A DNA stretch of 32,000 nt, from assembly GCF_036323395.1 (NCBI RefSeq), contig NZ_AP028907.1, positions 1,770,001-1,802,000 on the forward strand. The letters run 5' to 3'. Positions 8,619 to 30,338 of this stretch are shown piece after piece (within the stretch, counting starts at the first letter, position 1; each line of letters begins with the position of its first letter). The position numbers were made by a program, and so were the translations under genes. The stretch comes from Pyrodictium abyssi (GTDB lineage: Archaea > Thermoproteota > Thermoprotei_A > Sulfolobales > Pyrodictiaceae). Below the pieces are notes generated by a model. That model saw nothing but the letters and a program-made list of their open reading frames with translations. It was not told the origin of the DNA and searched no databases.

Positions 8619-8620
8619 TC

Positions 8621-14056: not shown

Positions 14057-14064
14057 AAGCCTTG

Positions 14065-14229
14065 CTACCTCCTCTCTTCGAGGAACTCCTCTAGCACATC
14101 CTCCTCAACCCTCTCAGCGTACTTTTCGAGCACCTCGTCAATACCCTTGGATATGCCGGCCCCTTTGGACCCGAGTAGCTTTCCTACAGCGCCTCTGGGC
14201 ACGCGAAGCCTCACAACACCGCTAGCCAC
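14065..14229 (-). CDS. vapB: Small antitoxin (VapB-like), 54 aa, below the ORF-track cutoff
   Basis: Hand translation from the GTG at 14229 gives VASGVVRLRVPRGAVGKLLGSKGAGISKGIDEVLEKYAERVEEDVLEEFLEERR*. The stop lies 8 nt upstream of the vapC ATG. A degraded copy exists at 21130-21254. Confidence 0.6.
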   Translation of the reverse strand: MASGVVRLRVPRGAVGKLLGSKGAGISKGIDEVLEKYAERVEEDVLEEFLEERR

Positions 14230-15161: not shown

Positions 15162-15482
15162 TTGGCTGTTGTGCGCGACAGGCGCACCATCGTGCTCGAC
15201 GAGGACGTGGCGGAGGAGCTGGGGCTAAGGCCCGGCGAGAGGCTAGAGGTGAGGAGAGAGGGGGATGTTATTGTGCTGCTGGAGGAGGGGGACTGGGTTG
15301 AGAAGCTTGTGAGAAGGTTTGAGGAGCGGTACGGGATGCCTACGGAGGAGTTCCTCGAGGCCTGGAGGCGCGGGGAGATACCGGAGCCCGAGGACCCGGA
15401 TCTACTCGCCGACTTTATGGAGTGGGAGGTGCTCGGGGAGCTGCGGCGGAGGAGGGGTGCGTGCCGGGGCTCCCGAGGATAA
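15162..15482 (+). CDS. AbrB/SpoVT-like putative antitoxin with a C-terminal acidic extension
   Basis: RRTIVLDEDVAEELGLRPGERLEVRREGDVIVLLE resembles a swapped-hairpin AbrB domain. It overlaps the downstream DUF6516-like gene by about 20 nt. The start is uncertain (TTG 15162, GTG 15171; the ORF track gives 15054). Confidence 0.55.
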   Translation: MAVVRDRRTIVLDEDVAEELGLRPGERLEVRREGDVIVLLEEGDWVEKLVRRFEERYGMPTEEFLEAWRRGEIPEPEDPDLLADFMEWEVLGELRRRRGACRGSRG

Positions 15483-15823
15483 GGCGCGTCGCCGCGCTCC
15501 TCCGGGGCCGTGGCTATAGTGTTAGCCTCGTGAGAGCTGTGAGCCGGCCCGGCTTCTTCTCGTACCGGCTGAGGGCCCGGCGGAGAGGGGTTCTCATCTA
15601 CGTGAGCGAGGTCTGGCTGCAGGGGAGGCTGGCTAGGTATGCGTACACCCTTGTGGTCGGCGGGAGGGCTGTCCTCCGCTACGACAACGCGCCCCACCAC
15701 CCCGGGCTATCTACGTATCCGCACCACGTGCACCGGGAGGGGAGAGTCGAGCCCCTCGAGAGACCCAGCCTCGAGGGGTTCCTGGAGGAGGCTGAGACGC
15801 TCCTCCGCCGGAGAGGACTCTAG
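15461..15823 (+). CDS. DUF6516 / TumE-like putative toxin
   Basis: The motif LRYDNAPHHPGLSTYPHHVH...PSLEGFLEEAE matches my memory of the DUF6516 (TumE family) signature YDNAPHH..PHHkH. GTG at 15461 preferred over the ORF-track start at 15422. Confidence 0.6.
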   Translation: MPGLPRIRRVAALLRGRGYSVSLVRAVSRPGFFSYRLRARRRGVLIYVSEVWLQGRLARYAYTLVVGGRAVLRYDNAPHHPGLSTYPHHVHREGRVEPLERPSLEGFLEEAETLLRRRGL

Positions 15824-15925
15824 CCCACCGGCGGCAAGCACACCCCGGACCCCGCCTCGTACGGTGTGAGTGTCGGGGTGCATCCCCTCTTAGGTATTCT
15901 AGGGCTCTGGGCCCCGGCATCCCGG

Positions 15926-16118
15926 CTATGTCGAGAGCGCTGACACGTCTAATGCCAGCCTCATGGCCTCATCCCTCCTCGCGGCCGGCCCTTATGGCCT
16001 CGACTATCTCCTCTACGGGTATCCTGCCCAGGATACTCTGGACCCTCGCCCTGGCCTGGGCGTTGTCCTTGGCGCCCCTGGGGCCTGGGGGAGGGGCTAT
16101 ACGCGGCCCTCCCTCCCC
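15926..16118 (-). pseudogene. Remnant of an RHH-VapB / VapC pair
   Basis: The minus strand reads ..RVQSILGRIPVEEIVEAIRAGREEG* (15969 end; no usable start codon upstream). Four nt later comes ATG-MRLALDVSALST* (15964-15926), a PIN-like N-terminus cut off after 12 codons. Confidence 0.35.
16097..16102 (+). promoter_or_regulatory. TATA-box-like element (CTATAC, in the shared TATACGCGGC motif)
   Basis: An AT-rich hexamer in GC-rich DNA, about 40 nt upstream of the GTG at 16140. The same 10-mer occurs upstream of 26114. Confidence 0.3.
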
Positions 16119-16139
16119 CTACTGTAGGGGTGTAGATGA

Positions 16140-16331
16140 GTGTCTAGGGTTGTTGAGGCTGTGTACGAGAAGGATGTGCTGCGGCCTCTAGAGGACCCCG
16201 GCCTAGAGGAGGGTGAGAGGGTTAGGCTGGTTATTGTTAGACGTGACCTCTCCAGGTACCGGGGTGTTCTGGGTAGGGCTAGCTACAGGGAGCTGAAGAG
16301 GCTGGAGGATGAGGCGCAGCTACAGCCTTGA
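16140..16331 (+). CDS. vapB: AF2212-like (DUF104) antitoxin
   Basis: VVEAVYEKDVLRPLEDPGLEEGERVRLVI is the classic DUF104/AF2212 pattern. The stop overlaps the TTG of the downstream PIN gene (TTGA). Confidence 0.8.
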   Translation: MSRVVEAVYEKDVLRPLEDPGLEEGERVRLVIVRRDLSRYRGVLGRASYRELKRLEDEAQLQP

Positions 16332-16786
16332 CTGCTGGCCCGGTCTTTATCGATACTAACGTTTTCTACAATGTGCTGTTTGAGACGGAGTATGCCGAGG
16401 AGTCTCAGCGCCTCCTCGAGACTGTGCCGAGGCCCGTGACGTCCTACACTGTGGTGAACGAGCTCGTACTCGTCGTGGCCAGGAAGGCTGTTGAGAGGGA
16501 GCCCGGCGTTAGAAGCTACTACGGGTTTAGAGAGGTTATAGCGGAGAAGGGCTACGGGCCCGTATAGCGCTACATCGAGGAGGCGCTGGGCCTACTGAGG
16601 GACGCTGGCGTAGAGATAGTAGACGACCACCGCGATGTGAACGGGTGGCTAGAGATAATGAAGGCCTACGGCCTGCTGCCGAACGACGCGCAGATAGCCC
16701 TGACATGCAGACACTACGGGATAGAGACCATAGCTACCTTCGACGAGGACTTCAAGAGGGTCCCATGGCTACAAGTGGTGCCATAG
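16328..16786 (+). pseudogene. vapC: PIN-domain VapC with an in-frame TAG at 16565-16567
   Basis: 16328-16564 encodes the PIN N-half (VFIDTNVFYNVL.., VVNELVLV). After the TAG the same frame continues for 72 codons to 16786 with the PIN C-half (LLPNDAQIALTCRHYGIETIATFDEDF). Confidence 0.75.
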
Positions 16787-17185
16787 AAGGGCCGTGTAGG
16801 CTCTCCAGGCCCACCTAGGAGGGCCAGCGCCTCCCCGGGCAGCACCTGTGCGCTCAGAGCGTGCCCCCGTGGCGGGGTATAGAGCTGACAGTGGTCCTAG
16901 CCCTCCCTTGGCACCACCGCTGTCGTCTCTCCTTGGTGCTCCGCCTCCTTTTCGTGTCGTCATGGGGCTGAGGAGGAGAGTAGGCTGCTGGAGGAGGTTA
17001 GGGGGCTCCGCGGGAAGGTGAACAGGACGCTGCCGGCGGCGCTGCGGCGGTTGGCCCCCGGGGCCTACTCGGTTATTGCTGGGAGGAGGCTGCCCCGCGC
17101 TGGGCGGGGAGGCTAGCGTGGACGTGGCGTGGTAGCCTGCATGGCCTGGTGGGGCCGGGCTGCCGGGGGTTCGGGCGGCCCCGGC

Positions 17186-17647
17186 CTAGCCGGGGGTGCT
17201 AGGGGTAGGCGGTCCCGGGGCCCGGGGCTTGTTCTGGGCGTGTCTCTGGAGGCCTCTTAGCTCGTCTTTGGCGCGGAGGAGGAGGCTCCAGCGGAGCCCT
17301 GGCCGCCGCGTGAAGAGGGGCTGGCCTTTGCTGAGCACTGCTGCGCGGAAGCCCGGTGGGGCGTAGTCGAGTAGCTTTACGTCCACCGGGGCGCCGGCGA
17401 GCTTGGAGAGGAGTAGGCTGAGCGTGTAGGTGTAGTATGGCTCGTCGTGGTAGCTTATCCTGCCTGCCGTGTAGACTGCTACGTCTATGTCCCGGAATAG
17501 CCTGTGGCGCGTGAACCCCCCGTATATTAGTGCTAGGAGTATCTCCCTGTGCCTGCTGAGCTCCGATGCTATCAGCCTGGCGGTCTCTAGCCTGGCTCTA
17601 GGGGGCATACTGCGTGGTAGCGGCTTCTCCTCTAGCAGCCTCTTCAA
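17186..17647 (-). CDS. mntA: Minimal nucleotidyltransferase (MNT) antitoxin
   Basis: LIYGGFTRHRLFRDIDVAVY matches the G[SG]x9-13DxD pol-beta NTase motif. It overlaps the upstream HEPN gene. The start may instead be the ATG at 17608. Confidence 0.85.
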   Translation of the reverse strand: MKRLLEEKPLPRSMPPRARLETARLIASELSRHREILLALIYGGFTRHRLFRDIDVAVYTAGRISYHDEPYYTYTLSLLLSKLAGAPVDVKLLDYAPPGFRAAVLSKGQPLFTRRPGLRWSLLLRAKDELRGLQRHAQNKPRAPGPPTPSTPG

Positions 17648-18095
17648 TGCACTCCTCCAGTCTGTGGAGGAACTCCTCTACGGCTTTTATGCCTCCCCTA
17701 GCTGCCTCGTTGAGGGCCCTCAGGTCGTCTATGAACCAGTAGCGGTGGATTATCGCGTTGCGTAGCGCTGCTAGCCTGGCCATCTCCTCGCCTACACGGG
17801 CGGGTATGACCCCCGCCTCGATGAGCCTCAGGAAGGACTCGCGGTAGGATGAGGGAGGCTGCTCGAACAGCTTCTCTAGAAGCGCTACCGCGGCGTCTAC
17901 AGAGGCCTCGACGAGGAGTATTATGGCGTAGCGGAGCGAGTATCTCAGCGTCTTGTCCCTGGCCACCTCCTCGGCCGGCAGCCCAGCTAGGAACCTTAGC
18001 TGGTCAAGCGCCTCCCGCGCGTCGGCTAGGTAGCGGCGTATCGCCTCCACCTCCTCCGGGGAAAGCCTAGACCCAAGGCTGCCGCACACACCCAT
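17598..18095 (-). CDS. hepT: HEPN-domain (DUF86) toxin
   Basis: LAALRNAIIHRYW matches the Rx4-6H HEPN RNase motif. ATG at 18095 (MGVCGS..). The 5' extension of the ORF-track entry (to 18440) is low-complexity and unlikely to be coding. Confidence 0.85.
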   Translation of the reverse strand: MGVCGSLGSRLSPEEVEAIRRYLADAREALDQLRFLAGLPAEEVARDKTLRYSLRYAIILLVEASVDAAVALLEKLFEQPPSSYRESFLRLIEAGVIPARVGEEMARLAALRNAIIHRYWFIDDLRALNEAARGGIKAVEEFLHRLEECIEEAARGEAATTQYAP

Positions 18096-18292
18096 AGTAC
18101 ACTCCTCCGGCTCCCCGTCGACCGGTGGACACGGGGCTCCATGCCGAGCCTGCCGAGGCCGGTAGCCCCCGCTCACACTACCCCCGGGAGCAGCGCCCCG
18201 AGGGGCGAGACGCATTCCCCTCCATAACGCTGCAGAATGAGACCCGCATATCCTGCTCGCCGACCCCGTGCTGCTAGCCACTCGGGCGTTCC

Positions 18293-18583
18293 GTGCCCCG
18301 ACACCATTATGGGGCTGCGCGCCAGGCCCCGGGAGCTCCGTCGCTGATAAAAGATCTAGCCGAGGAGAGGAAGAAGCTAGAGGATGAAATCGAGAAGCTC
18401 CGGGACGAGAAGAGGCTGGAAGAGAAGGTGAACGCGACACTGGCGGAGCTGGAGGAGCCCAGGGCCCGGCTCGACGGGCTGCGGGGCGCCGTGAACGCCA
18501 CTACTGCGTGCAGTGGGGGCTCCGGGCTGCCTGGCCTCCGTGGCTGTGGCGGCGGGGAGGCTGCCCCGCGCGGGCGGGGCTAG
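18293..18583 (+). CDS. Hypothetical small coiled-coil protein (doubtful)
   Basis: Charged heptad-like stretch KDLAEERKKLEDEIEKLRDEKRLEEKVNATLAELEE. A decayed paralogous copy without a start codon lies at about 16960-17116. No clear promoter or start. Confidence 0.25.
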   Translation: MPRHHYGAARQAPGAPSLIKDLAEERKKLEDEIEKLRDEKRLEEKVNATLAELEEPRARLDGLRGAVNATTACSGGSGLPGLRGCGGGEAAPRGRG

Positions 18584-19099
18584 AGGGTGTGGCCTCGGGG
18601 TGCCTGGTGCTGCCGGGGGCTGTAGGGCTTCATTCTCGCCTCCTGTGCTGCTTGGCTAGGAGCGCGTATGTACTGGTGGTATTCTTCCACCTTTTCCTCG
18701 GGGAAGGGTGTCTCCGCGTCCACCCCCTCTACTCTTGCCAGCTTCCTGTCCAGCGTGTATATCTTCTCCGCGTTGAGGCTCCGGGCTAGTGCTACAAGGT
18801 AGCCGTCCCACGACTCGATGCTGTAGGCTGCTGTGTCTAGGGCCTTTGCCGCTGGTGCGGCTTCTACGCTGGGGTAGAGCGCGGGTGAGCCCGTCTCAAG
18901 CATAGAGACTAGGACCTTCTTTACGGCGTGCCTCTGGACCCGGAGGTACCTCGTGGCTATGTGGTAGGCGCCGAGCACGGCTGTCACCGGTATTACCGCC
19001 CTCCGGCGGAGCGCTAGGACATCCTCCTAGGAACTCCACGGCGGGCCGGCGGAGCGGGTTCTCGAAGCACACGAGGACAACTATGCTGACGTCCACCAC
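18580..19099 (-). pseudogene. vapC: PIN-domain VapC disrupted by a frameshift near 19015-19040
   Basis: The N-terminus (VVDVSIVVLVCFENPLRRPAVEFL) is in the frame of ORF 18896-19138. The continuation (EDVLALRRRAVIPVTAVLGAYHIATRYL ... WDGYLVALARSLNAEKIYTLDRKL) is in the frame of ORF 18580-18987. Confidence 0.65.
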
Positions 19100-19103
19100 C
19101 CCC

Positions 19104-19452
19104 TCAACGTACCCCGAGCTTGCGCTCCGCGTACTCACGCCCCATCCACTCCCACTCCTCCTCTACCCGGCCGCCAGCCTCCTCGGTGAACGGCTCTAGA
19201 CGCTCAGCCAGAGCCCGCTCCCTCCACCACGCGGCCCGCTCCCCCAGGTCCCCGGCCCCCCGGGGGCACAAGCTCCACCCAGCCACCCCGGACCCGCAGG
19301 ACCAGCCGCCCACCGTTCTCTAGGCCTAGTAGCCGGCGCACCTCAGCCGGGAGGACTAGCCTCCCACGCCGGTCCACCCGGACCTCGTACTCCCCGGAGC
19401 AAGCCGCGGCACAGAGCCACCCCCGGGCGAATCCTCCAGAGAAGACCCTCAC
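19104..19452 (-). pseudogene. vapB: AbrB/SpoVT-type VapB antitoxin disrupted by a frameshift at the C6G5 run 19256-19266
   Basis: The AbrB domain YEVRVDRRGRLVLPAEVRRLLGLENGGRLVLRVRGGWVELVPP is in one frame. The plausible C-terminus (GDLGERAAWWRERALAERLEPFTEE..EYAERKLGVR*) is in another and ends 5 nt before the vapC GTG. Confidence 0.6.
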
Positions 19453-19575
19453 TAGGTATAACCTGGGGCCCCGCTATCGCTGTCTCCATCCCTTAGCGCT
19501 GCGGCCCTGTGCCGGGCGGCCCCGCCGGCGTGCCCCCGGGGGTTCTTGCCCCTTGTGGGCGCCCCCTGGCCGGGG

Positions 19576-19947
19576 CTAGCGGGGGTTCGCCCCGCGGGGC
19601 TGCTGGGCGAGGATGCAGGCCCATGTGGAGGGGCCGTCGAGGAGGATGCGTAGCCTGTTCAGCACCTCTCTCCCTACGAGGCGCTTGCCCCCGCCGTAGA
19701 GGGGCGTCTCGATGTAGACCTCGAGCCGCCGCCCCGCTACCTCGGCGACGGCGCGGGCCACTCTCATCGTGACGGTGTCTGCTAGCGTGCGGTAGGTCCT
19801 CCAGAGGCTCCGGGGCAGCTCGCCTATCATGAAGAACTCGTACTCGCCACGGGGCAGCATTATCGGGCCCTCGTACCCGGTGTCCACTTGGAGGGCTATC
19901 TCGCCGTACTCCTCCAGGGCCGCGTTGTAGAGGCGCAGACGGAGCAT
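19576..19947 (-). CDS. Retropepsin-like clan AA aspartic protease (AF_0612-like)
   Basis: MLRLRLYNAALEEYGEIALQVDTGYEGPIMLP has the catalytic D-T-G preceded by a hydrophobic beta strand. The C-terminal VGREVLNRLRILLDG is family-like. About 123 aa from the ATG at 19947; the ORF-track N-extension is Arg/Gly junk. Confidence 0.8.
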   Translation of the reverse strand: MLRLRLYNAALEEYGEIALQVDTGYEGPIMLPRGEYEFFMIGELPRSLWRTYRTLADTVTMRVARAVAEVAGRRLEVYIETPLYGGGKRLVGREVLNRLRILLDGPSTWACILAQQPRGANPR

Positions 19948-19988
19948 GGGGTAGGGGAGCCTCAGCCCCGGCGCGTAGCTCCAGCACT

Positions 19989-20375
19989 CTATGCCGGCTC
20001 CAGCGCCCCGCCCAGCCACTCGCCCCCTCCCCCGGCCTCGTCGTCCACACCCGGCCGCACCAGGACGGCCCTTCTCACCCCGCGACGGCGTAGCTCGCGC
20101 AGCGCCTCGGCGGCCTCCTCGAGGCTGGCGTAGACGCCTACTAGCCGGCCCCCGGCTATCACGACGTACATGCCGCGGGCCTCCCGGAGGAGCCGGGGCC
20201 GCAGCCGCTCCCACGCCTCATCGTCCACAGCCGAGTCCTCCACCACGGCGCCGCCGCGGAGCCAGAGCTCGATAGCCTCCTCCACGGCCTCGGAGGGCGA
20301 GAGGCCCCGGCGGGCAGCCTCGGCCTTAAGAAGCCTAACCTTCTCCGGAGATATCTTCTTCAGCACTAGAGGCAA
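19989..20375 (-). CDS. Ribbon-helix-helix DNA-binding domain fused to a DUF5678-like domain
   Basis: The N-terminus KISPEKVRLLKAEAARRGLSPSEAVEEAIELWL is RHH-like. The C-terminus MYVVIAGGRLVGVYASLEEAAEALRELRRRGVRRAVLVRPG resembles DUF5678. It lies immediately upstream of the aspartic protease gene. Confidence 0.65.
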   Translation of the reverse strand: MPLVLKKISPEKVRLLKAEAARRGLSPSEAVEEAIELWLRGGAVVEDSAVDDEAWERLRPRLLREARGMYVVIAGGRLVGVYASLEEAAEALRELRRRGVRRAVLVRPGVDDEAGGGGEWLGGALEPA

Positions 20376-20479
20376 CCCAGTCGCCCCGGGTACACCAGTA
20401 CACCCAGAACAGCGCTTTCAACCTATCCCCTGGCAGAGCCGAGCCCCAGGAGCGGCCCGGAGCGTAGGGCTATGCTTAT

Positions 20480-20517
20480 CCCTCTCTGCCCGCTCTACAG
20501 CCACGGGGCAGAGAGGG
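20480..20517. other. 12-bp stem / 14-nt loop hairpin (CCCTCTCTGCCC ... GGGCAGAGAGGG)
   Basis: Perfect inverted repeat read directly, in the ORF-poor stretch between 20375 and 20762. Confidence 0.5.
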
Positions 20518-20761
20518 CCCCCGGAGTGCCTCTGGTGGCCCGCCCCCTGGGAGCTGGAGGCCGGAGCCCGAGAAGGCCCGGATTACTCGCCGCCTAGCCC
20601 CCTGACCTCGCCTCCGAAGAGGCCTCGAGGAGCCTGCTCCTGGAGGCGCTGCTACGCGAAGCAGCCACACGGGAGGACGTGGAGAAGCTCGAGGAGAAGA
20701 TAGAGCAGAGGATGCACCGGATAGAAGAGAGGCTCGTAGACCGGAGAAAGAGCCGAGGGAG

Positions 20762-21067
20762 GTGGGCCCCGTGGCCGAGGAGAGACGGGCAAGGGTAATC
20801 GAGTACGACCCGGAGGCCGACGTGCTAACAGTGAACCTCCGGCCCGGCAGGAGGATAGCCGAGGATAGGCTACTCGACAACGATGTGGTGGTATCGGTGG
20901 ACGAGAAGGGCGAGCCAGTGCAGGTGCAGGTGCTCGACGCCAGCAAGCGGGGCCTCGTCGAGGCGCTCCTAGAGCTCCACCAGGCCCGGAAAGCCCTACT
21001 CCAGCTCCTCACAGGGCGGAGCACCGCCGGCCCCGCCGAGAGACAGCAGGCCCCCGAGAGCCCGTAG
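20762..21067 (+). CDS. DUF2283-domain protein (putative antitoxin-type), no cognate DUF4258 partner seen
   Basis: RVIEYDPEADVLTVNLRPGRRIAEDRLLDNDVVVSVDEKGEPVQVQVLDAS matches the YDxEADxLyi ... G.vvgiEil.as pattern. Confidence 0.78.
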   Translation: MGPVAEERRARVIEYDPEADVLTVNLRPGRRIAEDRLLDNDVVVSVDEKGEPVQVQVLDASKRGLVEALLELHQARKALLQLLTGRSTAGPAERQQAPESP

Positions 21068-21129
21068 CCCCGCCGCCCCGGCGGCTACAGCTCCCGTGCC
21101 CTGAGGGCCGTAGCTGCCAGCGCAGCCTA

Positions 21130-21254
21130 CTCAACCCTCTCAGCGTACTTTTCGGGCACCTCAGCAATACCCTTGGATATGCCGGCCCCCTGGACTCGAG
21201 TAGCTTTCCTACAGCGCCTCTGGGTACGCGAAGCCTCACAACACCGCTAGCCAC
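21130..21254 (-). pseudogene. Degraded duplicate of the vapB gene at 14065-14229
   Basis: About 144 bp (21130-21273) aligns with 14104-14247 at roughly 90 percent identity by eye. Translation starts identically (MASGVVRLRVPRGAVGKLL), then an indel shifts the frame. No PIN gene follows. Confidence 0.65.
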
Positions 21255-21262
21255 GAGCCCTC

Positions 21263-21352
21263 TACCACACGGTGCTGGTCGCCCCGGACTGGGCCCTGCA
21301 CGCCGAAGAGTAGAGGACCCGGCGGCCCCGCCGGCGTGCCCTGCCCCGGGGG
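21263..21352 (+). repeat. Copy of the ATP-grasp gene 3' end plus downstream sequence (compare 13133-13200)
   Basis: It translates LVAPDWALHAEE*, versus LVASDWALHAEQQQ* at the end of 12063-13178. It is followed by the shared GGCGTGCCCTGC motif and is fused directly to the vapB-fragment upstream region. Confidence 0.65.
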
Positions 21353-21383
21353 CGGGGTTTGGCGTGTAGTAGGCCCGGCCAAC

Positions 21384-21427
21384 AGGGACCCCCGGGGACG
21401 GGTACGGGGGAAGCGGAGCAGGGCTGG
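21384..21427 (+). repeat. Direct repeat R1, copy 1 (AGGGACCCCCGGGGACGGGTACGGGGGAAGCGGAGCAGGGCTGG)
   Basis: It matches 22349-22391 with one indel and one mismatch. The two copies bracket the vapBC cassette at 21509-22245. Confidence 0.85.
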
Positions 21428-21508
21428 GAAAGGAGCGTGTAGCTCGGCGACTCTGCTCATACTGGAGGGCGTGGCGGCGATACTGGTATAGCAGCCCGCT
21501 GGGGCGTA

Positions 21509-21781
21509 TTGATGGGTGAGCGTGGGAGGGAGCGGGTGCTGGCTCTCTGGAGGGGTCTTCCGTTGGCTGGGGAGGCCGTGGTTGAGGCGGTCTACGAGAG
21601 GGGTGTGCTACGGCTCCTTCGGCCCCTGGACTTGCCGGATGGGGCGCGTGTCGTTGTGAGGATAGTGGAGGCGGGTAGGCCGCCGCGTGGCCTGCTGGAG
21701 GTCCTCGACGAGATTGCGCGGGAGTACCGGGGCCGGGCGCGGGAGGATCCTCTCGAGGCGTTCCTCAGGGAGAGAAGATGA
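21509..21781 (+). CDS. vapB: AF2212-like (DUF104) antitoxin
   Basis: VVEAVYERGVLRLLRPLDLPDGARVVVRIVE. The stop overlaps the vapC ATG (ATGA). The real start may be TTG 21563 or GTG 21578. Confidence 0.8.
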   Translation: MMGERGRERVLALWRGLPLAGEAVVEAVYERGVLRLLRPLDLPDGARVVVRIVEAGRPPRGLLEVLDEIAREYRGRAREDPLEAFLRERR

Positions 21782-22245
21782 TAGTGCTGGATACGTCTAT
21801 CCTAGTGGACGCCGTTATACCGTTTGACGAGCACCGGCGGAGCATAGTTAGGAGGGTGCTCCGGGCGGTAGAGGAGGCCGGGGCGGTTGTCTACGAGCCC
21901 CGTCTCGTCCTGGTAGAGCTGGCGGGCGTCCTGGCCCGGTACCAGCCGCCGGATAAGGTGCGTAGCCATGTTGAGAGGATAGCAGAGAAGCTGGTGATAA
22001 TAGACTACGGCGTACTGCATGATACGGCTTACCGGGTGGCCCTGGAAACGGGGTGTAGGGCTGCAGACGCGTTCTTCATAGCGGCCGCGCTGCACACGGG
22101 CTCGCTTCTAGCCACAAACGACAGGATCCAGGCGGCAAACGCGGCTAGAATGGGTGTCGAGGCCTACTATGTGCTGCAGCAGCACCAGCAGCTCATAGAG
22201 CGGTTAAGGGATGCCAAAGAACCCCTAGACACAATGGATCAGTAA
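21778..22245 (+). CDS. vapC: PIN-domain toxin VapC
   Basis: MIVLDTSILVDAV, YEPRLVLVELAGVL, GCRAADAFFIAAALHTGSLLATNDRI. All PIN acidic positions are present. Confidence 0.92.
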   Translation: MIVLDTSILVDAVIPFDEHRRSIVRRVLRAVEEAGAVVYEPRLVLVELAGVLARYQPPDKVRSHVERIAEKLVIIDYGVLHDTAYRVALETGCRAADAFFIAAALHTGSLLATNDRIQAANAARMGVEAYYVLQQHQQLIERLRDAKEPLDTMDQ

Positions 22246-22348
22246 AATGGGGGAAGAGACTGGATTAGTTAGGCAACTGCTAGCCGGCCGACTACGTGGA
22301 GCCAGGGCCCCAACGTCTTCGATGGCTAGAGGTGCCAGCCAGGCCGAT

Positions 22349-22391
22349 AGGGACCCCGGGGACGGGTACGGGGGAAGCGGAGCCGGGCTGG
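22349..22391 (+). repeat. Direct repeat R1, copy 2
   Basis: See 21384-21427. It is immediately followed by the GCCCCCGGGGGC palindrome. Confidence 0.85.
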
Positions 22392-22513
22392 CCCCCGGGG
22401 GCGTAGCTAGCTATCCGGGGATGGTCTTGCTGCTCCTCTTCCCCTGTCTACCCCCTCTCTGGCTGCTGGCGCGCGTGTGGGGTTTGGTCTCGGGGGTGGG
22501 GCCTCCCCTGGGG

Positions 22514-22936
22514 CTACTCTTGTACGATTTTTATGCCTGGTAGGTTTTTGAAGTGTTTGTCGAAGGTGTAGACCTCTTCTACGCCGTGTTCCATCATCTT
22601 GATGTAGGCTAGGGCGTCGTTTAGGCTGACCGTGTAGCGGCTTGCTGTGGCTAGCGCCTTCTCGTAGTCCTCCTCCGTGACGCCTGCCACCCTTATATTC
22701 TCTAGCGAGAGTATCCGTGCCGCTACTCTGAGGCTTGTCTGGAGGCCTAGCCTCGCCTCCACGATGTTTGCTATCTCGGCTACGTGGATGACGGTTGTCA
22801 GCACCTCTTCGGAGCCCGCGTCTATGCGCTCTATTATGCTCTTGGCCCGCTCCTTTACCTGGGCTTCTCGCTGGCTTAGCCTTCTCCTCGGGGCGAGGTA
22901 GGCGTGGAGGAAAACGCTCGAGTCGAGGAACCTCAC
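22514..22936 (-). CDS. vapC: PIN-domain toxin VapC
   Basis: MRFLDSSVFLHAYL, VIHVAEIANIVE, SLNDALAYIKMMEHGVEEVYTFDKHF. The GTG start overlaps the vapB stop by 1 nt. Confidence 0.9.
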   Translation of the reverse strand: MRFLDSSVFLHAYLAPRRRLSQREAQVKERAKSIIERIDAGSEEVLTTVIHVAEIANIVEARLGLQTSLRVAARILSLENIRVAGVTEEDYEKALATASRYTVSLNDALAYIKMMEHGVEEVYTFDKHFKNLPGIKIVQE

Positions 22937-23172
22937 TACCGCTGCCCCTCCCTGGCTAGGGCTCTGCGCAGCTCGTGGGTGTCGGTGAAGTCCTCCACAT
23001 CGTCCACGACTATGGAGTCGAAGAGGCTTGTAAGGCTGACCGGTTCTACGGGCCGGAGCACTATCCTATCCTCCTCGGCCTCCACAATGAATAGCCTTGT
23101 CTTCAGCTTTCTCCGGATACCAGCGGGTATCAGTATCCTTCCCTGCTTATCCATCCTAGCCAGGAGACCCAT
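22936..23172 (-). CDS. vapB: AbrB/SpoVT-type antitoxin VapB
   Basis: ARMDKQGRILIPAGIRRKLKTRLFIVEAEEDRIVLRPV is a canonical AbrB-type swapped hairpin. Confidence 0.9.
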   Translation of the reverse strand: MGLLARMDKQGRILIPAGIRRKLKTRLFIVEAEEDRIVLRPVEPVSLTSLFDSIVVDDVEDFTDTHELRRALAREGQR

Positions 23173-23435
23173 ACCCCCACCAGCCCTATAGAAGCGCTAC
23201 CACCGGCTTAATAGTGCTTCCAGGCTCTCGGTGCTATACCGGCTCCTGGAAGCCCTCCAGGACCACCGTGACCCGGCACTACAGTGCTCCATGCGGGGGC
23301 TGAACCCCTGGAGGGGCAGGAGGAACACCCCTAGTACTACCACCCAGCAACGCCACATACAAGCATGCAAAGAACACATCTCCACCGGGCCTGCACGGCT
23401 ACCAGGCCACCTGCACACTACAGCCCTAAAGGCCA

Positions 23436-23463
23436 CCAAGGCCTGCTGCGCAGCAGGCCTTGG
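23436..23463. repeat. Perfect 28-bp palindrome CCAAGGCCTGCTGCGCAGCAGGCCTTGG
   Basis: Read directly: 13-bp arms with a 2-nt centre. It lies in the roughly 580-bp ORF-poor spacer 23173-23754. Confidence 0.8.
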
Positions 23464-23754
23464 CGGCTGGAGGCTGCGCCTAGGTGCACAGCCGGAACCG
23501 CAAGAGAGATTTAAGGCGCTCCTCTCCGCGGGCTCCTTGGCCGCTGTAAGAGGATCTAGCTAGCCGGGGAGGGGGAGAAGGGCTGGAAGAGGCAGGGGCT
23601 CCGGGGGACCCGGGGCTGCGGCTGCCGGGGCTGGGTGGTGCTTGGACGCGGGTTCTAGAGCCTTGCGGCGCGCATCGAGCTGCTTTTTGATGCCGCTGTT
23701 TGGTGGTAAGTGTGGCTAGCGCCGGGTCCGGCCTCCTGTCTCTCTGGGACTGCT

Positions 23755-23936
23755 CTCGGGTCCTCCGCTACCCCGGGCACCCTGTGCTCGCTGCGGCGTA
23801 GCCCGGGGCGTGTCCGGGTGGTGTGAGCCCTGGGTATCCGGAGTGTTGCAGCCCTGGTTTGCGTGTGCGACGCTTTCTACCGGGTGCCCCGCGCCGGCGA
23901 CCCCGGCTTCATCGACGCTGTGCTGGAGATCGCGGG
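23755..23936 (+). pseudogene. Fragment duplicating the 5' part of the ATP-grasp gene (compare 12098-12283)
   Basis: 23865-23936 matches 12212-12283 with a single mismatch. The upstream 110 nt is more diverged, with two short deletions. In frame it reads ..VV*ALGIRSVAALVCVCDAFYRVPRAGDPGFIDAVLEIAG, with TGA replacing the Cys codon. Homology ends abruptly before the vapC stop at 23978. Confidence 0.8.
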
Positions 23937-23977
23937 TGTCGGTGTCACGTGTCGGCTCCTGGGCTACTCGGCTGCTC

Positions 23978-24385
23978 CTACGCGCCCTGTAGCTCTTTTA
24001 GCAGCTGCTCGACGCTGATGGACTCGGGGAATCTCTGTAGGTCGCTGTCCTCTGTGACTAGCTTCATCCGGTGTGCCCGCGCCGCGTATAGGTAGGATGC
24101 GTCGTAGAACGTGAGGCTCTCGCTCGTGGCGAGCTCTGCTATCTCGGGCAGCCTGTCCCGGAGGCTTATCACCTGCATGCCGCCGAGGACCTCCTGGAAG
24201 AGCCTGGCCACCACCAGGAGGTCCCTGATCCTGCCTCTCCGGTGCTCCTTCCAGATGACGTTCCCGACCTCGTAGACTGTCAGGTCTAGGGCTGCGAAGA
24301 GATGGGTGTAGGCTAGCAGGGTTTCCCGGAGCCGGAGTACTAGCGGGTATAGGGCCGAGGCGTCGAGGAGATACCTGCCCGCCAC
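23978..24385 (-). CDS. vapC: PIN-domain toxin VapC
   Basis: RYLLDASALYPLV, LDLTVYEVGNVIWKE, SLTFYDASYLYAARAHRMKLVTEDSDL. The GTG at 24385 just after the vapB stop is preferred; the ORF-track start is 24433. Confidence 0.85.
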   Translation of the reverse strand: MAGRYLLDASALYPLVLRLRETLLAYTHLFAALDLTVYEVGNVIWKEHRRGRIRDLLVVARLFQEVLGGMQVISLRDRLPEIAELATSESLTFYDASYLYAARAHRMKLVTEDSDLQRFPESISVEQLLKELQGA

Positions 24386-24393
24386 AGCCGCGG

Positions 24394-24618
24394 CTACCTC
24401 TCCTTCCTCGTCTCCCGGACCGCCTGCACCCACTCCTCCACCGTGAGGTCCATGGCGTCTAGCGCCTCGTCTATGAGCCTCCGGAGCCGGTGCATCCGGG
24501 CCCGCCGGATCTCCTCCTCCAGCGCCTTCTCCACGACAGCCCGGAGGTCTATGCCCAGCCTCTCAGCTTCCTCCTTGAGCTCGCGCCGGACCCGGACAGA
24601 TAGGACAACCGTAGACAC
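24394..24618 (-). CDS. vapB: Ribbon-helix-helix (CopG-like) antitoxin VapB
   Basis: VVLSVRVRRELKEEAERLGIDLRAVVEKALEEEI fits a beta strand plus two helices. GTG start at 24618. Confidence 0.85.
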   Translation of the reverse strand: MSTVVLSVRVRRELKEEAERLGIDLRAVVEKALEEEIRRARMHRLRRLIDEALDAMDLTVEEWVQAVRETRKER

Positions 24619-24653
24619 TCCGCGCCTCCCCCGGCACCGTAGACGCGGCCACC

Positions 24654-24661
24654 GTATATAA
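24654..24661 (-). promoter_or_regulatory. TATA-box-like element TTATATAC
   Basis: The only AT-rich octamer in GC-rich DNA here, 37-44 nt upstream of the vapB GTG at 24618. Confidence 0.35.
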
Positions 24662-24810
24662 GCAGCGTGTACACTATAGCCACCCCAGGCAAGCAGAAGG
24701 GGACTAAGCAGGCAAAGGAGCCGTACACGCTCCCTAGTATCCCCCGGTGCGCCGCCATGCAGGCCCCGGGCCCCGGAGCCCTGTGAACGCCGCCGTAGCA
24801 GCGGTGGTCC

Positions 24811-24981
24811 TGGCCCCCGGGCTTGCCGGATGGGGCGCGTGTCGTTGTGAGGATAGTGGAGGCGGGTAGGCCGCCGCGTGGCCTGCTGGAGGTCCTCGAC
24901 GAGATCGCGCAGGGGTACCGGGGCCGGGCGCGGGAGGGATCCTCTCGAGGCGTTCCTCAGGGAGAGAAGATGATAGTGCTG
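24811..24981 (+). pseudogene. Truncated duplicate of the AF2212-type antitoxin 3' part plus the first codons of vapC (compare 21618-21790)
   Basis: About 160 nt are nearly identical to 21631-21790 (3 mismatches and a 1-nt insertion, GGGAGGGATCC). The copy includes the ATGATAGTGCTGG junction and then diverges. Confidence 0.82.
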
Positions 24982-25132
24982 GGATGGATTGTCTCTATGC
25001 CCGCTGGGCGCTGAGAGATGGCGGAGAACGTGGAGAAGCTCTTAGCCGAGATAAGGGGAGCATCTGTGGCCAGGCGGGGCGGGCAGAGCATCGCATAGCG
25101 ATGGCTCCTCATGCTCCTACCGGATAACATAG

Positions 25133-25586
25133 CTAGCGCGTATGCGGGCCGTGGCCTCCCATGGAGGCTGGTTCTAGGGCGTCCACGGTGGCGGTTTTCA
25201 CGCCAGCTCTGCTGGCTTTTTCTCTCAGCTCTCTGTCCTGGGTGACCAGGGTTAGGCCGTGCTTCCGGGCCATGTACGCGTAGGCGGCGTCGTAGAATGT
25301 TAGCCCGGTTTCTAGTGCTAGCCTGGCTACGCCCTGGTAGTCGCCGGTGCCTCTCACGCTGAGTACATGCATCGAGCTGAGTATGGCTACTAGCTTCTCG
25401 GCCTTCTCTAGGGCCTCCTCCACGCCCGTGTCTCCGAGCAGGCGTGCCTCCTTCCAGACGACGCTGCCGAGCCCGGTGGTACGCGAGGTCGAGTGTGTAG
25501 GATTCACGCAGGACCGGGACCACCGCGTCGCCGTATCTGCGTAGGGCGACCGCTATAGCGCTGGAGTCCAGCAGGTAGCCGGCCAC
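25133..25586 (-). pseudogene. vapC: PIN-domain VapC disrupted by a frameshift near 25465-25485
   Basis: The N part (AGYLLDSSAIAVALRRYGDAVVPVLRESYTLDLAYH) is in one frame. The rest (GLGSVVWKEARLLGD ... GLTFYDAAYAYMARKHGLTLVTQDREL) is in another. It is a close paralogue of 23978-24385. Confidence 0.7.
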
Positions 25587-25824
25587 GGGGCACCCGCCGT
25601 GCTCTCCTCTGCTCCTTCACCAGCCTGGCTATCTCGTCCTCTGGGAGCCTGCTGAAGAACTCCTGTAGCTCCCGGGCAGCGGCCCGTAGCTCCTCCTCCC
25701 TCTTCTCCAGCTCCTCTTCGAGGGCTCGGCGCAGAACCTCGCCGACGTCTATATTGTACCTCTTCAGCTCCTCGTAGAGCTCTCTCCTAACCCTGGCGGA
25801 GACAGTGACGTAGCCACTAGTCAA
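25504..25824 (-). CDS. vapB: Ribbon-helix-helix antitoxin VapB (the C-terminal tail may be aberrant)
   Basis: YVTVSARVRRELYEELKRYNIDVGEVLRRALEEELEKR. A paralogue of 24394-24618, but the ORF runs about 80 nt into the vapC start instead of stopping before it. Confidence 0.72.
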   Translation of the reverse strand: MTSGYVTVSARVRRELYEELKRYNIDVGEVLRRALEEELEKREEELRAAARELQEFFSRLPEDEIARLVKEQRRARRVPRGRLPAGLQRYSGRPTQIRRRGGPGPA

Positions 25825-25865
25825 GCAGGCCCCACCCTAAGGTACCACTAGACCCCTACCAGGCA

Positions 25866-25873
25866 CTAATAAG
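25866..25873 (-). promoter_or_regulatory. TATA-box-like element CTTATTAG
   Basis: AT-rich octamer 42-49 nt upstream of the TTG start at 25824. Confidence 0.3.
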
Positions 25874-26073
25874 GACAAGCGCAGCAGAGGAACCCACCGC
25901 CTCCATGGATACGACATCTCCAACAGGCTCCCGCTTCTCGGGCCCCTGGGTCCTTAGGCCTGCCGGAGGGGCTCGCATCGTTCTGAAAATATCTCGTGGC
26001 TGGTGCGCTGCTCTATCCCCGCCGGGGCCCTCTATCCCGGAGAGCCGCCCTCCGAGGAGTATCCAGGACAAGT

Positions 26074-26080
26074 CTTATAC
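26074..26080 (+). promoter_or_regulatory. TATA-box-like element (CTTATAC, in the shared TATACGCGGC motif)
   Basis: 34-40 nt upstream of the ATG at 26114. The 10-mer is identical to the one at 16098-16107. Confidence 0.3.
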
Positions 26081-26113
26081 GCGGCAGGGGCGTATGTGCG
26101 TGTTGGTGTGTGC

Positions 26114-26404
26114 ATGTCGGTGAACATTACTGTCCGTATACCGCGTAGGCTCGCAGAGGAGATGAAGAAGCACCGGGAGATAAACTGGAGCGAGGTAGTG
26201 AGACGCAGCATCGAGGAGTACCTCCGGCGCCTAGACGAGGCTAGGCGCCTCGAGACGCCCGGCGAGCTGCTCGAGGAGCTACGCAGGCTAGGCGTAGGCC
26301 CAGAGGACCTCGAGCCCCTACCACCCGGCGCCGAGGAGGAGTACTACGGGAGGATGGTGGCCGAGGAGTGGAGGAGGGTAAGATCTACGACACAAGCGCA
26401 GTGA
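26114..26404 (+). CDS. vapB: RHH/VapB-type antitoxin
   Basis: MSVNITVRIPRRLAEEMKKHREINWSEVVRRSIEEYL. ATG at 26114; the ORF-track start at 26003 is unlikely. Confidence 0.8.
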   Translation: MSVNITVRIPRRLAEEMKKHREINWSEVVRRSIEEYLRRLDEARRLETPGELLEELRRLGVGPEDLEPLPPGAEEEYYGRMVAEEWRRVRSTTQAQ

Positions 26405-26709
26405 TAGAGCTGGTGGCGCGGAGACGGGCCCCGCTAGTACCAGGCTACATATCCGTGCTGACAGCGGTAGAGTACCCGCCGGCCGTGCCCCGCGTACTAG
26501 GGATACTGTACCCCACGAAGCAGGACTACCGGCTCGCAGTAGCATGGCAGGCCAAGCTCCGCAGGCTCGGCGCGCCGATGCCGGCAGTAGACCTCGTCAT
26601 AGCCGCCCAGGCGTACAACAACGGCATGGAGCTAGTAGCGCTCGATAAGCACTTCCAGCTCCTAAAGGAGAAGATAGCGCCAGACCTCAAGCTGGTAGAG
26701 GAGCTATAG
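26368..26709 (+). CDS. vapC: Short PIN-domain toxin VapC
   Basis: KIYDTSAVIEL, VLTAVEY, AVDLVIAAQAYNNGMELVALDKHF. It overlaps the antitoxin gene. Confidence 0.8.
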   Translation: MEEGKIYDTSAVIELVARRRAPLVPGYISVLTAVEYPPAVPRVLGILYPTKQDYRLAVAWQAKLRRLGAPMPAVDLVIAAQAYNNGMELVALDKHFQLLKEKIAPDLKLVEEL

Positions 26710-26779
26710 CAGCATGCTGCAGCACACAGCGCCCCTGGGGGACCCACGCCCCGCTGTACCCCCGGGGGGCCAGAGGCTT

Positions 26780-27364
26780 CTACGGGCCCAGGACGCGTCT
26801 AAGCGCCTCTAGGAGCCGGGGCTCCTCGGCGCTGTTCTCTAGGTGTAGGAACCTGACTCCAAGCCTGCTGCACGCCTCGGCGTAGGCGGGGTTGTCGTCT
26901 ACGAGTAGCAGCTCGCCCGGCGGGGCCCCGGTCCCGGCTAGTATCATGCGCAGCATCTCCTCCTTGCTGGGGTGGTCGTCGCGGGTGACTAGGCCGCGGA
27001 AGTAGCCCAGCAGGCCGTGCCTCCGTAGGAACGGCTCCACGACGGCCCGGGGCTGGAGGGTCGCCAGGTACACCTCTAGGCCGTGGCCGCGGGCTAGCTG
27101 GAGCGCTGGCTCCACGTCGGGGAAGGGGGCCGCCCTCTCCGCGGCTTCGCGCTCGAAGCGCTCGAGCACACGGCTGGCGAGAGCGTACTCCCCGGTGCCC
27201 CATAGGCTGGCCAGGAGCCGGGTCAGGCTAGCCACGGGGCGCCCGAGGACCCGGGACACCTCCCGGCGGGCCCGCTGCCAGTCCACCGGCAGCCTCGTGA
27301 CCACCCCATCGAAGTCGAGTACCAGGACCGAGACCCTACCCCGGCGGCTGCTCATCCCCCTCAT
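26780..27364 (-). CDS. HAD-superfamily hydrolase/phosphatase
   Basis: Motif I VLVLDFDGVV, motif II-like LATLQ and motif IV LLVDDNP. 194 aa. Confidence 0.85.
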   Translation of the reverse strand: MRGMSSRRGRVSVLVLDFDGVVTRLPVDWQRARREVSRVLGRPVASLTRLLASLWGTGEYALASRVLERFEREAAERAAPFPDVEPALQLARGHGLEVYLATLQPRAVVEPFLRRHGLLGYFRGLVTRDDHPSKEEMLRMILAGTGAPPGELLLVDDNPAYAEACSRLGVRFLHLENSAEEPRLLEALRRVLGP

Positions 27365-27437
27365 CCTGCCGGGGAGCAGCGATGACCACCTACTTCCGGC
27401 TTACGGTCCCAGCGGGGCGCTGCAAGCCCCCGGGGGG

Positions 27438-27899
27438 CTAGCCGTGTTTCCTGACGAACTCCTCCTCGTGGATTATGCTGGTTGTGTCTTCTCCCACCGC
27501 TTCTAGGAAGTCTAGGAGCCTCATGTCTCTCGTCAGGAAGCTTAGCCTCCGTGTCTTCGACGTCGTGTAGAGGAGGAGGTCTATAAGGTCTTTGAACCCT
27601 TTCCTGCGCAGTTCTAGCGCCTTCAGGTACCCTGCTGCCGTGGGCTGGGTTGCCCTAAACGCCTCCCTGATAGACTTTAGCCCAAGCATCACCCTTCTCC
27701 TGTCATAGTCTATTCTCGAGAGCTTGCCCATTATCTCGAATACGTTGAACTGTGTGTAGTAGATCTCGGCTCTCCCTAGCCTGTATAGCTTCTCTAGCAC
27801 GGTTAGTGCCTCCTCCACCCCCTCTACATCGACCCCCACTACCGGCAGCAGGTACGTCGTGTCTAGTAGTATTCTAATCCTGTTCTCCGAGGAGTTCAC
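27438..27899 (-). CDS. vapC: PIN-domain protein (VapC-like)
   Basis: IRILLDTTYLLPVVG, QFNVFEIMGKL, LSFLTRDMRL. It overlaps the upstream AbrB gene. Confidence 0.8.
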   Translation of the reverse strand: MNSSENRIRILLDTTYLLPVVGVDVEGVEEALTVLEKLYRLGRAEIYYTQFNVFEIMGKLSRIDYDRRRVMLGLKSIREAFRATQPTAAGYLKALELRRKGFKDLIDLLLYTTSKTRRLSFLTRDMRLLDFLEAVGEDTTSIIHEEEFVRKHG

Positions 27900-28128
27900 C
27901 CTGCATCTCCTCTGACTCCTTCTCGAACTCCTCGAAGCTTGTCTTGGCGAACTTAGGGTACCTCAGCGCCAGCTCGAAGGGGTCGGGCACTACCTCTATG
28001 ACCACCTTGTTGTCCTTTACTCTCAGCTTTACAACAGTACCCTCCTTTATGCCGACGGCCTCAGCTATACTCTTGGGTATGTAGAGCATGTTCTTCCGGC
28101 CTACACGGGTCCTAGCAACCAGGCCCAA
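27874..28128 (-). CDS. vapB: AbrB/SpoVT-type antitoxin VapB
   Basis: VGRKNMLYIPKSIAEAVGIKEGTVVKLRVKDNKVVIEVVP. Confidence 0.9.
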   Translation of the reverse strand: MGLVARTRVGRKNMLYIPKSIAEAVGIKEGTVVKLRVKDNKVVIEVVPDPFELALRYPKFAKTSFEEFEKESEEMQGELLGEQD

Positions 28129-28164
28129 GCACGCCCGCCAGGATGATACACATACTCCTAGACG

Positions 28165-28171
28165 GTAAAAA
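28165..28171 (-). promoter_or_regulatory. TATA-box-like element TTTTTAC
   Basis: 37-43 nt upstream of the TTG start at 28128, the same spacing as in the other TA operons here. Confidence 0.3.
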
Positions 28172-28365
28172 CACTCCCAGACAAAGGGGCCTCGTCCAGG
28201 CCCGAAAAGAGCCGGCTGGCCTGGGGAGAGACAGCCGGGTCCGAGTACTCCGCGGGGCCATAGGGACCGGGAGAGGGCAAGCCGCCGGGAGGAACGGCTA
28301 TGCTGTATGTGGTAGGCTCCTCGGTCTACGCTAGCATGCTACAAGCGGAAGGGATGACTGGTCTA

Positions 28366-29499: not shown

Positions 29500-29511
29500 G
29501 CGTCTCCAGCG

Positions 29512-30300: not shown

Positions 30301-30338
30301 CGTAAACCCTTATTAAACACCCCTGCAGCCCTCGATAG

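Follow-up and report, generated by a model that had tools for sequence, protein, structure and literature searches.

Within a 32,000-nucleotide (nt) stretch of the Pyrodictium abyssi genome (contig NZ_AP028907.1, positions 1,770,001–1,802,000; hereafter the window, in whose positions all coordinates are given unless a contig is named), a two-gene vapBC toxin-antitoxin operon lies between two copies of a direct repeat. The repeat is designated R, with R1 being the left copy and R2 the right (Table 1). The operon belongs to a toxin-antitoxin island of 13.6 kb (13179–26779) which separates a gene of the ATP-grasp family from one encoding a HAD hydrolase. The repeat pair, the cassette that it encloses, the counterparts of both in related archaea and the history of the surrounding island are described here, and it is proposed that R1 and R2, at the two ends of a vapBC unit of approximately 1 kb, may be a scar of recombination.

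The vapBC Operon and the Repeats That Enclose It

The two copies of R read AGGGACCCCC... at 21384–21427 and AGGGACCCC... at 22349–22391, the differences between them being an additional C and an A/C mismatch. In a local alignment the pair widened to 55 columns at 90.9% identity (21373–21427 versus 22338–22391), within which a 30-mer is common to both copies without any difference, and weak similarity was found to run on for a short distance to the right of each (Table 1). The spacing between the copies, start to start, is 964–965 nt. When the window was searched with a 26-nt R core, allowing up to three mismatches, exactly two occurrences were obtained in the 32 kb and none in 100 dinucleotide-preserving shuffles; a nhmmer profile built from R1 and R2 likewise detected no third copy in the window. 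The pair is real, and chance is rejected as its source.

The enclosed genes encode an AF2212-like antitoxin and a PIN-domain toxin, and the stop codon of vapB overlaps the start codon of vapC in the tetranucleotide ATGA (21778–21781). Versions of VapB of 89 and 72 amino acids are both on record, and an alignment of 14 homologues of VapC revealed D5, D97, and D115 to be invariant and E47 to be nearly so. Judged by its domains, its acidic residues, and its coupled gene order, the operon is a predicted type II VapBC module, in which VapC would be toxic and VapB would neutralize it. A TATA sequence between R1 and vapB may serve as its promoter. No integrase or transposase family was detected among the 30 open reading frames of the window that were scanned, most of the larger ones included, and IMG/VR yielded no members of the vapC family carried by viruses or plasmids. 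The original prediction for this DNA, namely that direct repeats of 43–44 bp with one indel and one mismatch, flanked by weaker similarity, enclose a single operon of an AF2212 antitoxin and a PIN protein, was thus upheld by direct reading of the sequence, by the extended alignment, and by the Pfam matches and the ATGA overlap; its further statement that the window encodes no recombinase held within the open reading frames scanned.

Table 1. Features at and around the repeat-bounded vapBC cassette, with the nucleotide identity of parts of the cassette to metagenome contig L075.
Feature	Position	Strand	Identity to L075	Details
Intact ATP-grasp gene (sugar-pathway gene)	12012–13178	+		Pfam ATPgrasp_Ter, PylC-like_N; 3' end marks the left limit of the island and is the segment duplicated around the L075 cassette
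Duplication of vapB of the module at 13.6 kb	14093–14250 vs 21119–21276			92% between copies; 21-kb copy frameshifted and cut off
Duplication of post-stop motif	19512–19542 vs 21318–21352			86% between copies
Truncated, frameshifted vapB pseudogene	21119–21254	-		Copy of vapB 14065–14229; 1-nt deletion
ATP-grasp 3' stub	21274–21352	+		Stop TAG 21311–21313 and post-stop motif; directly left of R1
Repeat copy R1	21373–21444	+		Strong part 21373–21427, exact core 21390–21419, weak extension to 21444; within conserved 5' leader of vapBC operon
R1 core (38 nt)	21390–21427		97.4%	
Putative promoter and leader	21445–21511	+	96.4%	Between R1 and vapB; TATA at 21487–21490, 22–25 nt before ATG 21512
vapB antitoxin, AF2212-like	21512–21781	+	98.1%	PF01954, E = 1.8e-12; alternative starts TTG 21509, TTG 21563
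vapC toxin, PIN domain	21778–22245	+	96.5%	PF01850, E = 5.2e-12
C-terminus of vapC			70%	
3' non-coding DNA			84%	
Repeat copy R2	22338–22408	+	62% in global alignment, ~77% locally	Strong part 22338–22391, exact core 22354–22383, weak extension to 22408; begins 92 nt past vapC stop
Post-stop 15-mer GGCCCCCGGGGGCGT	22390–22404	+		Directly after R2; identical to 13180–13194 past the intact ATP-grasp stop; 4/1000 shuffles reach the score
Fragment of 5' part of ATP-grasp gene	23752–23936	+		84% vs 12097–12283, with a 73-nt stretch at 99%; duplication debris in island
Truncated pseudo-copy of the vapBC cassette	24812–24982	+		3' two-thirds of vapB (1-nt insertion) and first 13 nt of vapC; 96.5% vs 21621–21790
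HAD hydrolase gene	26780–27364	-		Pfam HAD families; right edge of the island

Several identities that R might have had were tried and set aside. The repeat is direct and 55 nt in length, and no bracket of inverted repeats was found around the unit in a scan of 20500–23500, so that a transposon or a miniature inverted-repeat transposable element (MITE) was rejected. ARAGORN identified no tRNA genes in the window. An origin of R as a tRNA-derived attachment (att) site was discarded when its alignment to seven tRNA-Arg genes of relatives proved no better than that of shuffled sequences, and descent from diverged ATP-grasp coding or downstream DNA was discarded in turn, the similarity not being significant. 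No Rfam family was matched at gathering score in the window, and for R itself a relaxed limit of E <= 10 returned only sub-threshold noise from miRNA families; with R folding no better than shuffles on either strand (z = -1.38 to +0.52), a structured RNA or an attC hairpin was rejected also. Neither copy is preceded by a TATA-like box.

A 21-mer of the R core had no matches in genome and viral contig collections, and the three matches found in metagenomes, of 21–24 nt with unrelated flanks, were judged to be chance; no other copies of the 43-mer, which the original prediction had entertained, were found in public collections, the source genome itself lying outside what could be searched. The closest homologues (L001, and L002–L004 from P. 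fumarii) have neither repeats nor any similarity to R in their flanks. An alignment between R2 and P. fumarii L002 482–525, a gene start (48 nt, 79%), was attributed to chance between G+C-rich sequences, as the protein encoded there has no counterpart in the window.

The core of R contains the palindrome CCCCGGGG together with a tandem ACGGGT/ACGGGG. Mostly in the form GCCCCCGGGGGC, this palindrome occurs 12 times in the window, at positions 13183, 14280, 17056, 19258, 19534, 21344, 21390, 22354, 22393, 26760, 27428, and 31149, where 1.45 occurrences would be expected. The copies are mostly intergenic in appearance and several follow directly upon stop codons; the palindrome may be a terminator-like or protein-binding element.

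An Orthologous Cassette Between Copies of an ATP-Grasp Gene End

A look-up of clusters led to a contig of 1280 nt from metagenome 3300021980 of the Joint Genome Institute (JGI), L075, which carries an orthologous cassette. Positions 83–1072 of L075 align with 21390–22385 of the window at 93.7% identity. Both repeats keep their places there, R2 in decayed form and again beginning approximately 92 nt past vapC. Both copies were therefore present in the common ancestor of the two cassettes. The two repeats have not fared alike since (Table 1). The 38-nt core of R2 in the window is identical to the core of R1 in L075 at 38 of 38 positions, and all of the differences in R2 consequently lie on the L075 branch, where R2 departs at about 8 of 35 positions. 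R1 thus behaves as functional leader DNA, while R2 is free to decay. This asymmetry points to a homogenization of R2 by R1 in the lineage of the window, which would most simply have come about through gene conversion with R1 as the donor. The toxin genes differ in length, with vapC encoding 162 amino acids in L075 (470–958) and 155 in the window; their identity is approximately 97% up to the final 10 codons, where it falls to 70%, and it is low further downstream, a pattern that suggests a recombination breakpoint near the 3' end of vapC.

The unit in L075 is itself nested within an outer direct repeat of 72 nt (1–72 versus 1139–1210 of the contig; 71 of 72 positions identical), which is made up of the final 72 nt of ATP-grasp coding sequence. 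With some flanking sequence, the two segments (L075 1–93 and 1120–1220) are 90% identical to 13082–13193 of the window, at the end of the intact ATP-grasp gene. The left outer copy runs into the cassette 4 nt short of its stop codon; its counterpart on the right retains the stop codon and has a different flank. The cassette thus reads as an insertion at an ATP-grasp 3' end, with R as the inner and presumably older pair.

Variable Occupancy Among Relatives

In a metagenome-assembled genome (MAG) of the Pyrodictiaceae (L077/L078), the gene order is DegT aminotransferase, GFO-type oxidoreductase, and ATP-grasp, and both the island and toxin-antitoxin genes are absent. In L077 (8001–9650), the HAD gene is convergent with the ATP-grasp gene and overlaps its end by 36 nt, whereas the two are 13.6 kb apart in the window; the HAD proteins share 48% amino acid identity. 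A closer relative, L076, with 89% DNA identity over 12049–13652, keeps the first 470 nt past the ATP-grasp gene and a rearranged remnant of the module at 13.6 kb, after which it diverges. The vapBC cassette stands next to a live ATP-grasp gene in L075, unlike in L076 or the window.

A second module of the island behaves in a comparable manner. The AbrB-PIN module at 22506–23246 is 97% identical in metagenome contigs L072 and L074 and 86% identical in the MAG contig L073, and in these the homology stops 3–8 nt beyond the stop codon of the PIN gene, with unrelated flanks. Because homology extends unit by unit and the flanks differ, the modules move or are replaced as discrete units. The original prediction had also envisaged empty sites in relatives. 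L077 and L078 lack the island as a whole, and occupancy beside the ATP-grasp gene varies among the relatives, but an empty site for the R pair was not among them.

Bracketing Repeats Across the vapBC Family

A scan based on the vapC alignment yielded 64 loci, and 52 homologous vapBC loci were tested for bracketing by comparing the 650 nt upstream with the 450 nt downstream of vapC for direct repeats at E < 1e-5, with other positions in the same loci serving as controls. Bracketing direct repeats were found at 10 of the 52 vapBC loci and at 4 of 321 control positions, an excess of approximately 15-fold (Fisher p = 8e-7). The repeats are of two kinds. Some derive from the target of insertion, comprising the 3' halves of tRNA-Arg genes (L025, L033, and L048), a tRNA 3' half (L060), and the 3' end of a HAD gene (L045). 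The others are duplications of the leader and the 5' part of vapB within tandem arrays (L008, L019, L027, and L049), with L056 possessing a truncated second leader.

At four further loci (L017, L032, L037, and L057) a tRNA-Arg gene lies 44–58 nt away from the cassette, and the tRNA sequence is not repeated on the other side. Together with L048, L025, and L033, these form a set of sister-clade cassettes located 44–80 nt from the 3' ends of tRNA-Arg genes with the anticodons GCG, CCG, or TCG. The taxa with vapBC adjacent to tRNA-Arg include Archaeoglobaceae, Desulfurococcales, and Pyrodictiaceae, and at three loci a second, partial tRNA lies on the far side. None of the short homologous units revealed an integrase. 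Among the tandem arrays, L027 holds at least six paralogous vapBC cassettes between 1500 and 9500 with a period of approximately 835 nt; these share the intergenic leader (motif ATTGCCACGAAGTGGCGAACGCCAATTT) and the N-terminus of VapB, and their toxins differ.

The Toxin-Antitoxin Island and Its Duplications

The island comprises at least 10 toxin-antitoxin modules, with cassettes on both strands: PIN toxins accompanied by AF2212-like, AbrB, or ribbon-helix-helix (RHH) antitoxins, TumE, and HepT with a nucleotidyltransferase. Beyond its right edge, the HAD gene is followed by one for a DegT aminotransferase. Comparison of the window with itself by BLAST showed the stretch between 12 and 25 kb to be a patchwork holding at least six short duplications at identities of 76–96%, the R pair among them. 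One of these concerns the end of the ATP-grasp gene: 21274–21344 matches 13133–13201, which consists of the last codons of the gene, its stop codon, and post-stop DNA, at 76%, a score reached by none of 1000 shuffles, and the full stub (21274–21352) matches L075 at 85% over 33 nt. In light of these duplications, the 440 nt between a DUF2283 gene and vapB are a mosaic, in the order vapB pseudogene, ATP-grasp 3' stub, R1, and promoter. The presence of ATP-grasp stubs at 19.5 and 21.3 kb would fit repeated insertion at the end of that gene.

To the right of the operon, the similarity between R1 and R2 ends at 22391–22408, and a complete second cassette is absent after R2. The 15-mer that follows R2 may be a relic of a right-hand copy of the target; the evidence for this is weak because such palindromes are common in the intergenic DNA of this region (12 versus 1.45 expected). 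A partial third copy of the operon, at 24812–24982, does argue for local duplication of the cassette and could be the displaced remainder of a second tandem unit. This copy is wedged between two PIN modules of the minus strand.

Other features of the window lie further from the repeats. Between the AbrB-PIN module and the 5' fragment of the ATP-grasp gene, in apparently non-coding DNA, there is a palindrome of 36 nt without a spacer (23432–23467; GCCACCAAGGCCTGCTGC/GCAGCAGGCCTTGGCGGC, 94% complementary). The G+C content changes abruptly from approximately 30–49% over positions 1–12000 to 60–70% over 12001–32000. The low-G+C part encodes glycosyltransferases, a UDP-glucose dehydrogenase, a nucleotidyltransferase, an FkbM-type methyltransferase, sugar-nucleotide enzymes, and a protein of 494 amino acids without a Pfam match, and it looks like a horizontally acquired island for glycan synthesis. 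On the far side, a minus-strand gene (29512–30300) for a protein with DUF3782 and PD-(D/E)XK (PDDEXK_10) domains contains six overlapping copies of a 61-nt repeat in steps of 21 nt (29880–30087), which probably reflect the coding of a heptad-type coiled coil.

Origin of the Repeat Pair

R1 and R2 are interpreted as a scar that recombination left on either side of a vapBC cassette of approximately 1 kb, a reading that, taking together the two routes by which it might have come about, is judged to have an even chance of being correct. By the first route, a circular copy of the cassette would have recombined with the chromosome by a single crossover through a segment of 55–70 bp (a Campbell-type insertion), giving the arrangement R-vapBC-R. 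By the second, unequal crossing-over between the leaders of cassettes, or a tandem duplication, would have been followed by the loss of the second cassette, with the same outcome. The joining could be performed by homologous recombination of the host or by an integrase acting in trans, and the cassette would need no recombinase of its own; once in place, the toxin-antitoxin pair would select against its own loss. Thereafter, R1 would have become part of the conserved leader of the operon and R2 would be a non-essential second copy, which gene conversion would have held at, or brought to, near identity with R1 in the genome of the window. The island itself would have expanded insertion by insertion at the ATP-grasp 3' end, each event leaving a stub of the gene end.

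A number of observations weigh against this reading. The 55-mer is without a match to tRNA-Arg, to any Rfam family, to the ATP-grasp gene, or to the DNA downstream of it. The outer, ATP-grasp repeat of L075 is the better candidate for an insertion scar, and R then requires a second event; nested inner repeats were found in none of the other relatives with att-type repeats. Among the relatives, neither an allele reduced to one R by loss of the cassette nor an allele lacking R was found. The att-type cases all belong to the sister clade, at approximately 40% identity, and the clade of the window supplied one bracketed case, which is of the tandem type. Finally, L075 is a single short contig, and its path through one outer copy, the cassette, and the other outer copy (A1-cassette-A2) might conceivably combine sequence from a circle with sequence from an empty site in the chromosome.

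One alternative is that R constitutes the core att site of a tyrosine-type recombinase encoded elsewhere, the cassette then being an integrase-less, cis-mobilizable element moved in trans. An exact core of 30 nt with less similar arms does resemble an attL/attR pair, and gene 3' ends have been duplicated in L075 and L045. The sister-clade cassettes bounded by 3' halves of tRNA-Arg genes are, moreover, of the same size as the unit considered here, and tRNA 3' halves are the classic target of integration in archaea. Against these stand the lack of an integrase both among the scanned open reading frames and in the short homologous units, the failure to recognize R as a tRNA or a gene end, its position within a better att candidate in the form of the ATP-grasp 3' end, the decay of R2 in L075, where it has not been conserved as a site, and the absence of further copies of R from genome, viral, and metagenome collections beyond the chance matches. 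Decayed elements flanked by att sites, and the accretion of elements at one such site, are established in bacteria (PMC5704250), but for R this explanation appears unlikely.

The bracket might instead be incidental, with R2 a stray fragment, perhaps the stub of an otherwise lost second tandem copy, that had no role in the arrival of the cassette. The region is indeed rich in short duplications, including stubs of vapB, of vapBC, and of the ATP-grasp gene; relatives such as L027 and L056 display tandem arrays or a truncated second leader; and the pseudo-copy at 24812–24982, at 96.5% identity, is of similar age. Nevertheless, R2 occupies the same position in the L075 unit and so travels with the cassette, bracketing repeats are strongly enriched around the vapBC family, and R excludes the promoter and the 5' end of vapB, unlike the tandem-array repeats of relatives. 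A purely incidental bracket is accordingly considered quite unlikely.

It was also considered whether R is a functional cis element that happens to be present twice, either an operator or insulator bound by VapB, VapBC, or another regulator, or a small structured RNA. With R1 and the leader 96–97% identical to L075, the level of the coding sequence, against approximately 84% for the 3' non-coding DNA, and with a palindrome and a tandem motif in its core, R1 has some of the attributes of such an element. This possibility is nonetheless given little credence, as R2 was not conserved in L075, neither a folding signal, nor an Rfam match above noise, nor a TATA-like box ahead of either copy was found, and R1 stands approximately 65–135 nt ahead of the start codon, which is not where an operator usually lies. 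An archaeal integron, with R as an attC-type site and the island as its cassette array, is contradicted and can be given virtually no weight: the arrays of chromosomal integrons, such as the superintegrons of Vibrio, do typically hold toxin-antitoxin cassettes between similar repeats, but the island has just two copies of R for at least 10 cassettes, these lie on both strands, R forms no hairpin from an imperfect palindrome, and no intI-like gene was found among the open reading frames scanned.

The original prediction had left an att-type duplication, a cassette boundary, and a tandem-duplication scar side by side. As borders of a discrete, movable vapBC unit, the repeats have gained support from the 94% identity of the L075 cassette, from the variable occupancy beside the ATP-grasp gene, and from the roughly 15-fold excess of bracketing around the family; a role for the 55-mer as an att site is conjectural, with no match to a tRNA or gene end, with the outer repeat of L075 as the clear scar, and with R2 of L075 at approximately 77%. 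A tandem-duplication scar remains a live alternative, the R pair being one of at least six short duplications.

The scar reading could be carried further into a more general model, although this is speculative and its probability is held to be low. The vapBC pairs of this archaeal family would be minimal mobile units of 0.8–1.1 kb which carry their own promoter and no recombinase, circularize, and enter the chromosome again at conserved gene 3' ends (tRNA-Arg, HAD hydrolase, and ATP-grasp) by a single crossover that duplicates the target end; the units would accrete into islands and be held there by addiction, and R1 and R2 would be the terminal recombination segments of the cassette, flanking a target-derived core in the circle. 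If this were true, islands in hyperthermophilic archaea would grow, like bacterial islands, by repeated insertion and duplication at one gene end, and host recombination might suffice without a dedicated integrase. If R is merely a duplication stub, the locus is ordinary. The usual account of how chromosomal toxin-antitoxin genes spread in archaea goes little further than to say that they sit in variable regions, whereas concrete junctions are available here: a 1-kb unit of vapBC only, a nested duplication of a host-gene 3' end, repeated stubs over 13.6 kb, and a family-wide excess of bracketing.

Comparison With Known Systems

In the Sulfolobales, vapBC pairs are concentrated in variable regions and decayed integrated elements are found at tRNA genes (PMC3119797, PMC3718332); the plasmid pAH1, for example, integrates at tRNA-Arg[TCG] (PMC3119797), and direct repeats are standard scars of integration (PMC6563490). 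The locus resembles the decayed elements at archaeal tRNA genes ("gene capture" of the SSV and pNOB8 types) in that direct repeats of approximately 40–70 nt flank inserted DNA, vapBC is a common cargo of variable regions, and successive insertions can occur at one site; the sister-clade cassettes are bounded by tRNA-Arg 3' halves. It departs from them in that the repeat of the window is not a tRNA, neither intN/intC fragments nor other element genes are present, the unit is approximately 1 kb in length with vapBC alone, and the identifiable target is the ATP-grasp 3' end by way of the outer pair and not of R.

The retention of flanking, att-like direct repeats is shared with bacterial att-flanked elements that lack integration genes (PMC5704250), and the composite structure with stubs of the target end, here those of the ATP-grasp gene at 13133–13201, 19512–19542, and 21274–21352, is shared with bacterial accretion islands (PMC5704250). 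In contrast to the latter, the host is an archaeon, neither a helper element nor an integrase was identified, the cassettes are found in both orientations, and many of the junctions have the look of illegitimate deletions; the same products could come from homologous recombination. Integron toxin-antitoxin cassettes provide a further likeness, as small units containing their own promoter that pile up in a single array bordered by similar repeats, but the attC structure, IntI, and attI are all missing here, R is present in two copies, and the orientation of the cassettes is mixed.

Comparable in spacing are the tandem paralogous vapBC arrays of the MAG loci L027, L008, L019, L049, and L056, in which the repeat upstream of vapB recurs after vapC at intervals of approximately 0.8–1.0 kb. 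In those arrays, the repeat spans the promoter and the 5' coding part of vapB and the next cassette follows, whereas in the window R falls approximately 65 nt short of the start codon and is not followed by another cassette. The locus is thus best described as a variant of known systems, distinguished by its archaeal host, its content of vapBC only, its length of approximately 1 kb, the 3' end of a protein gene as its identifiable target, and an extra inner repeat.

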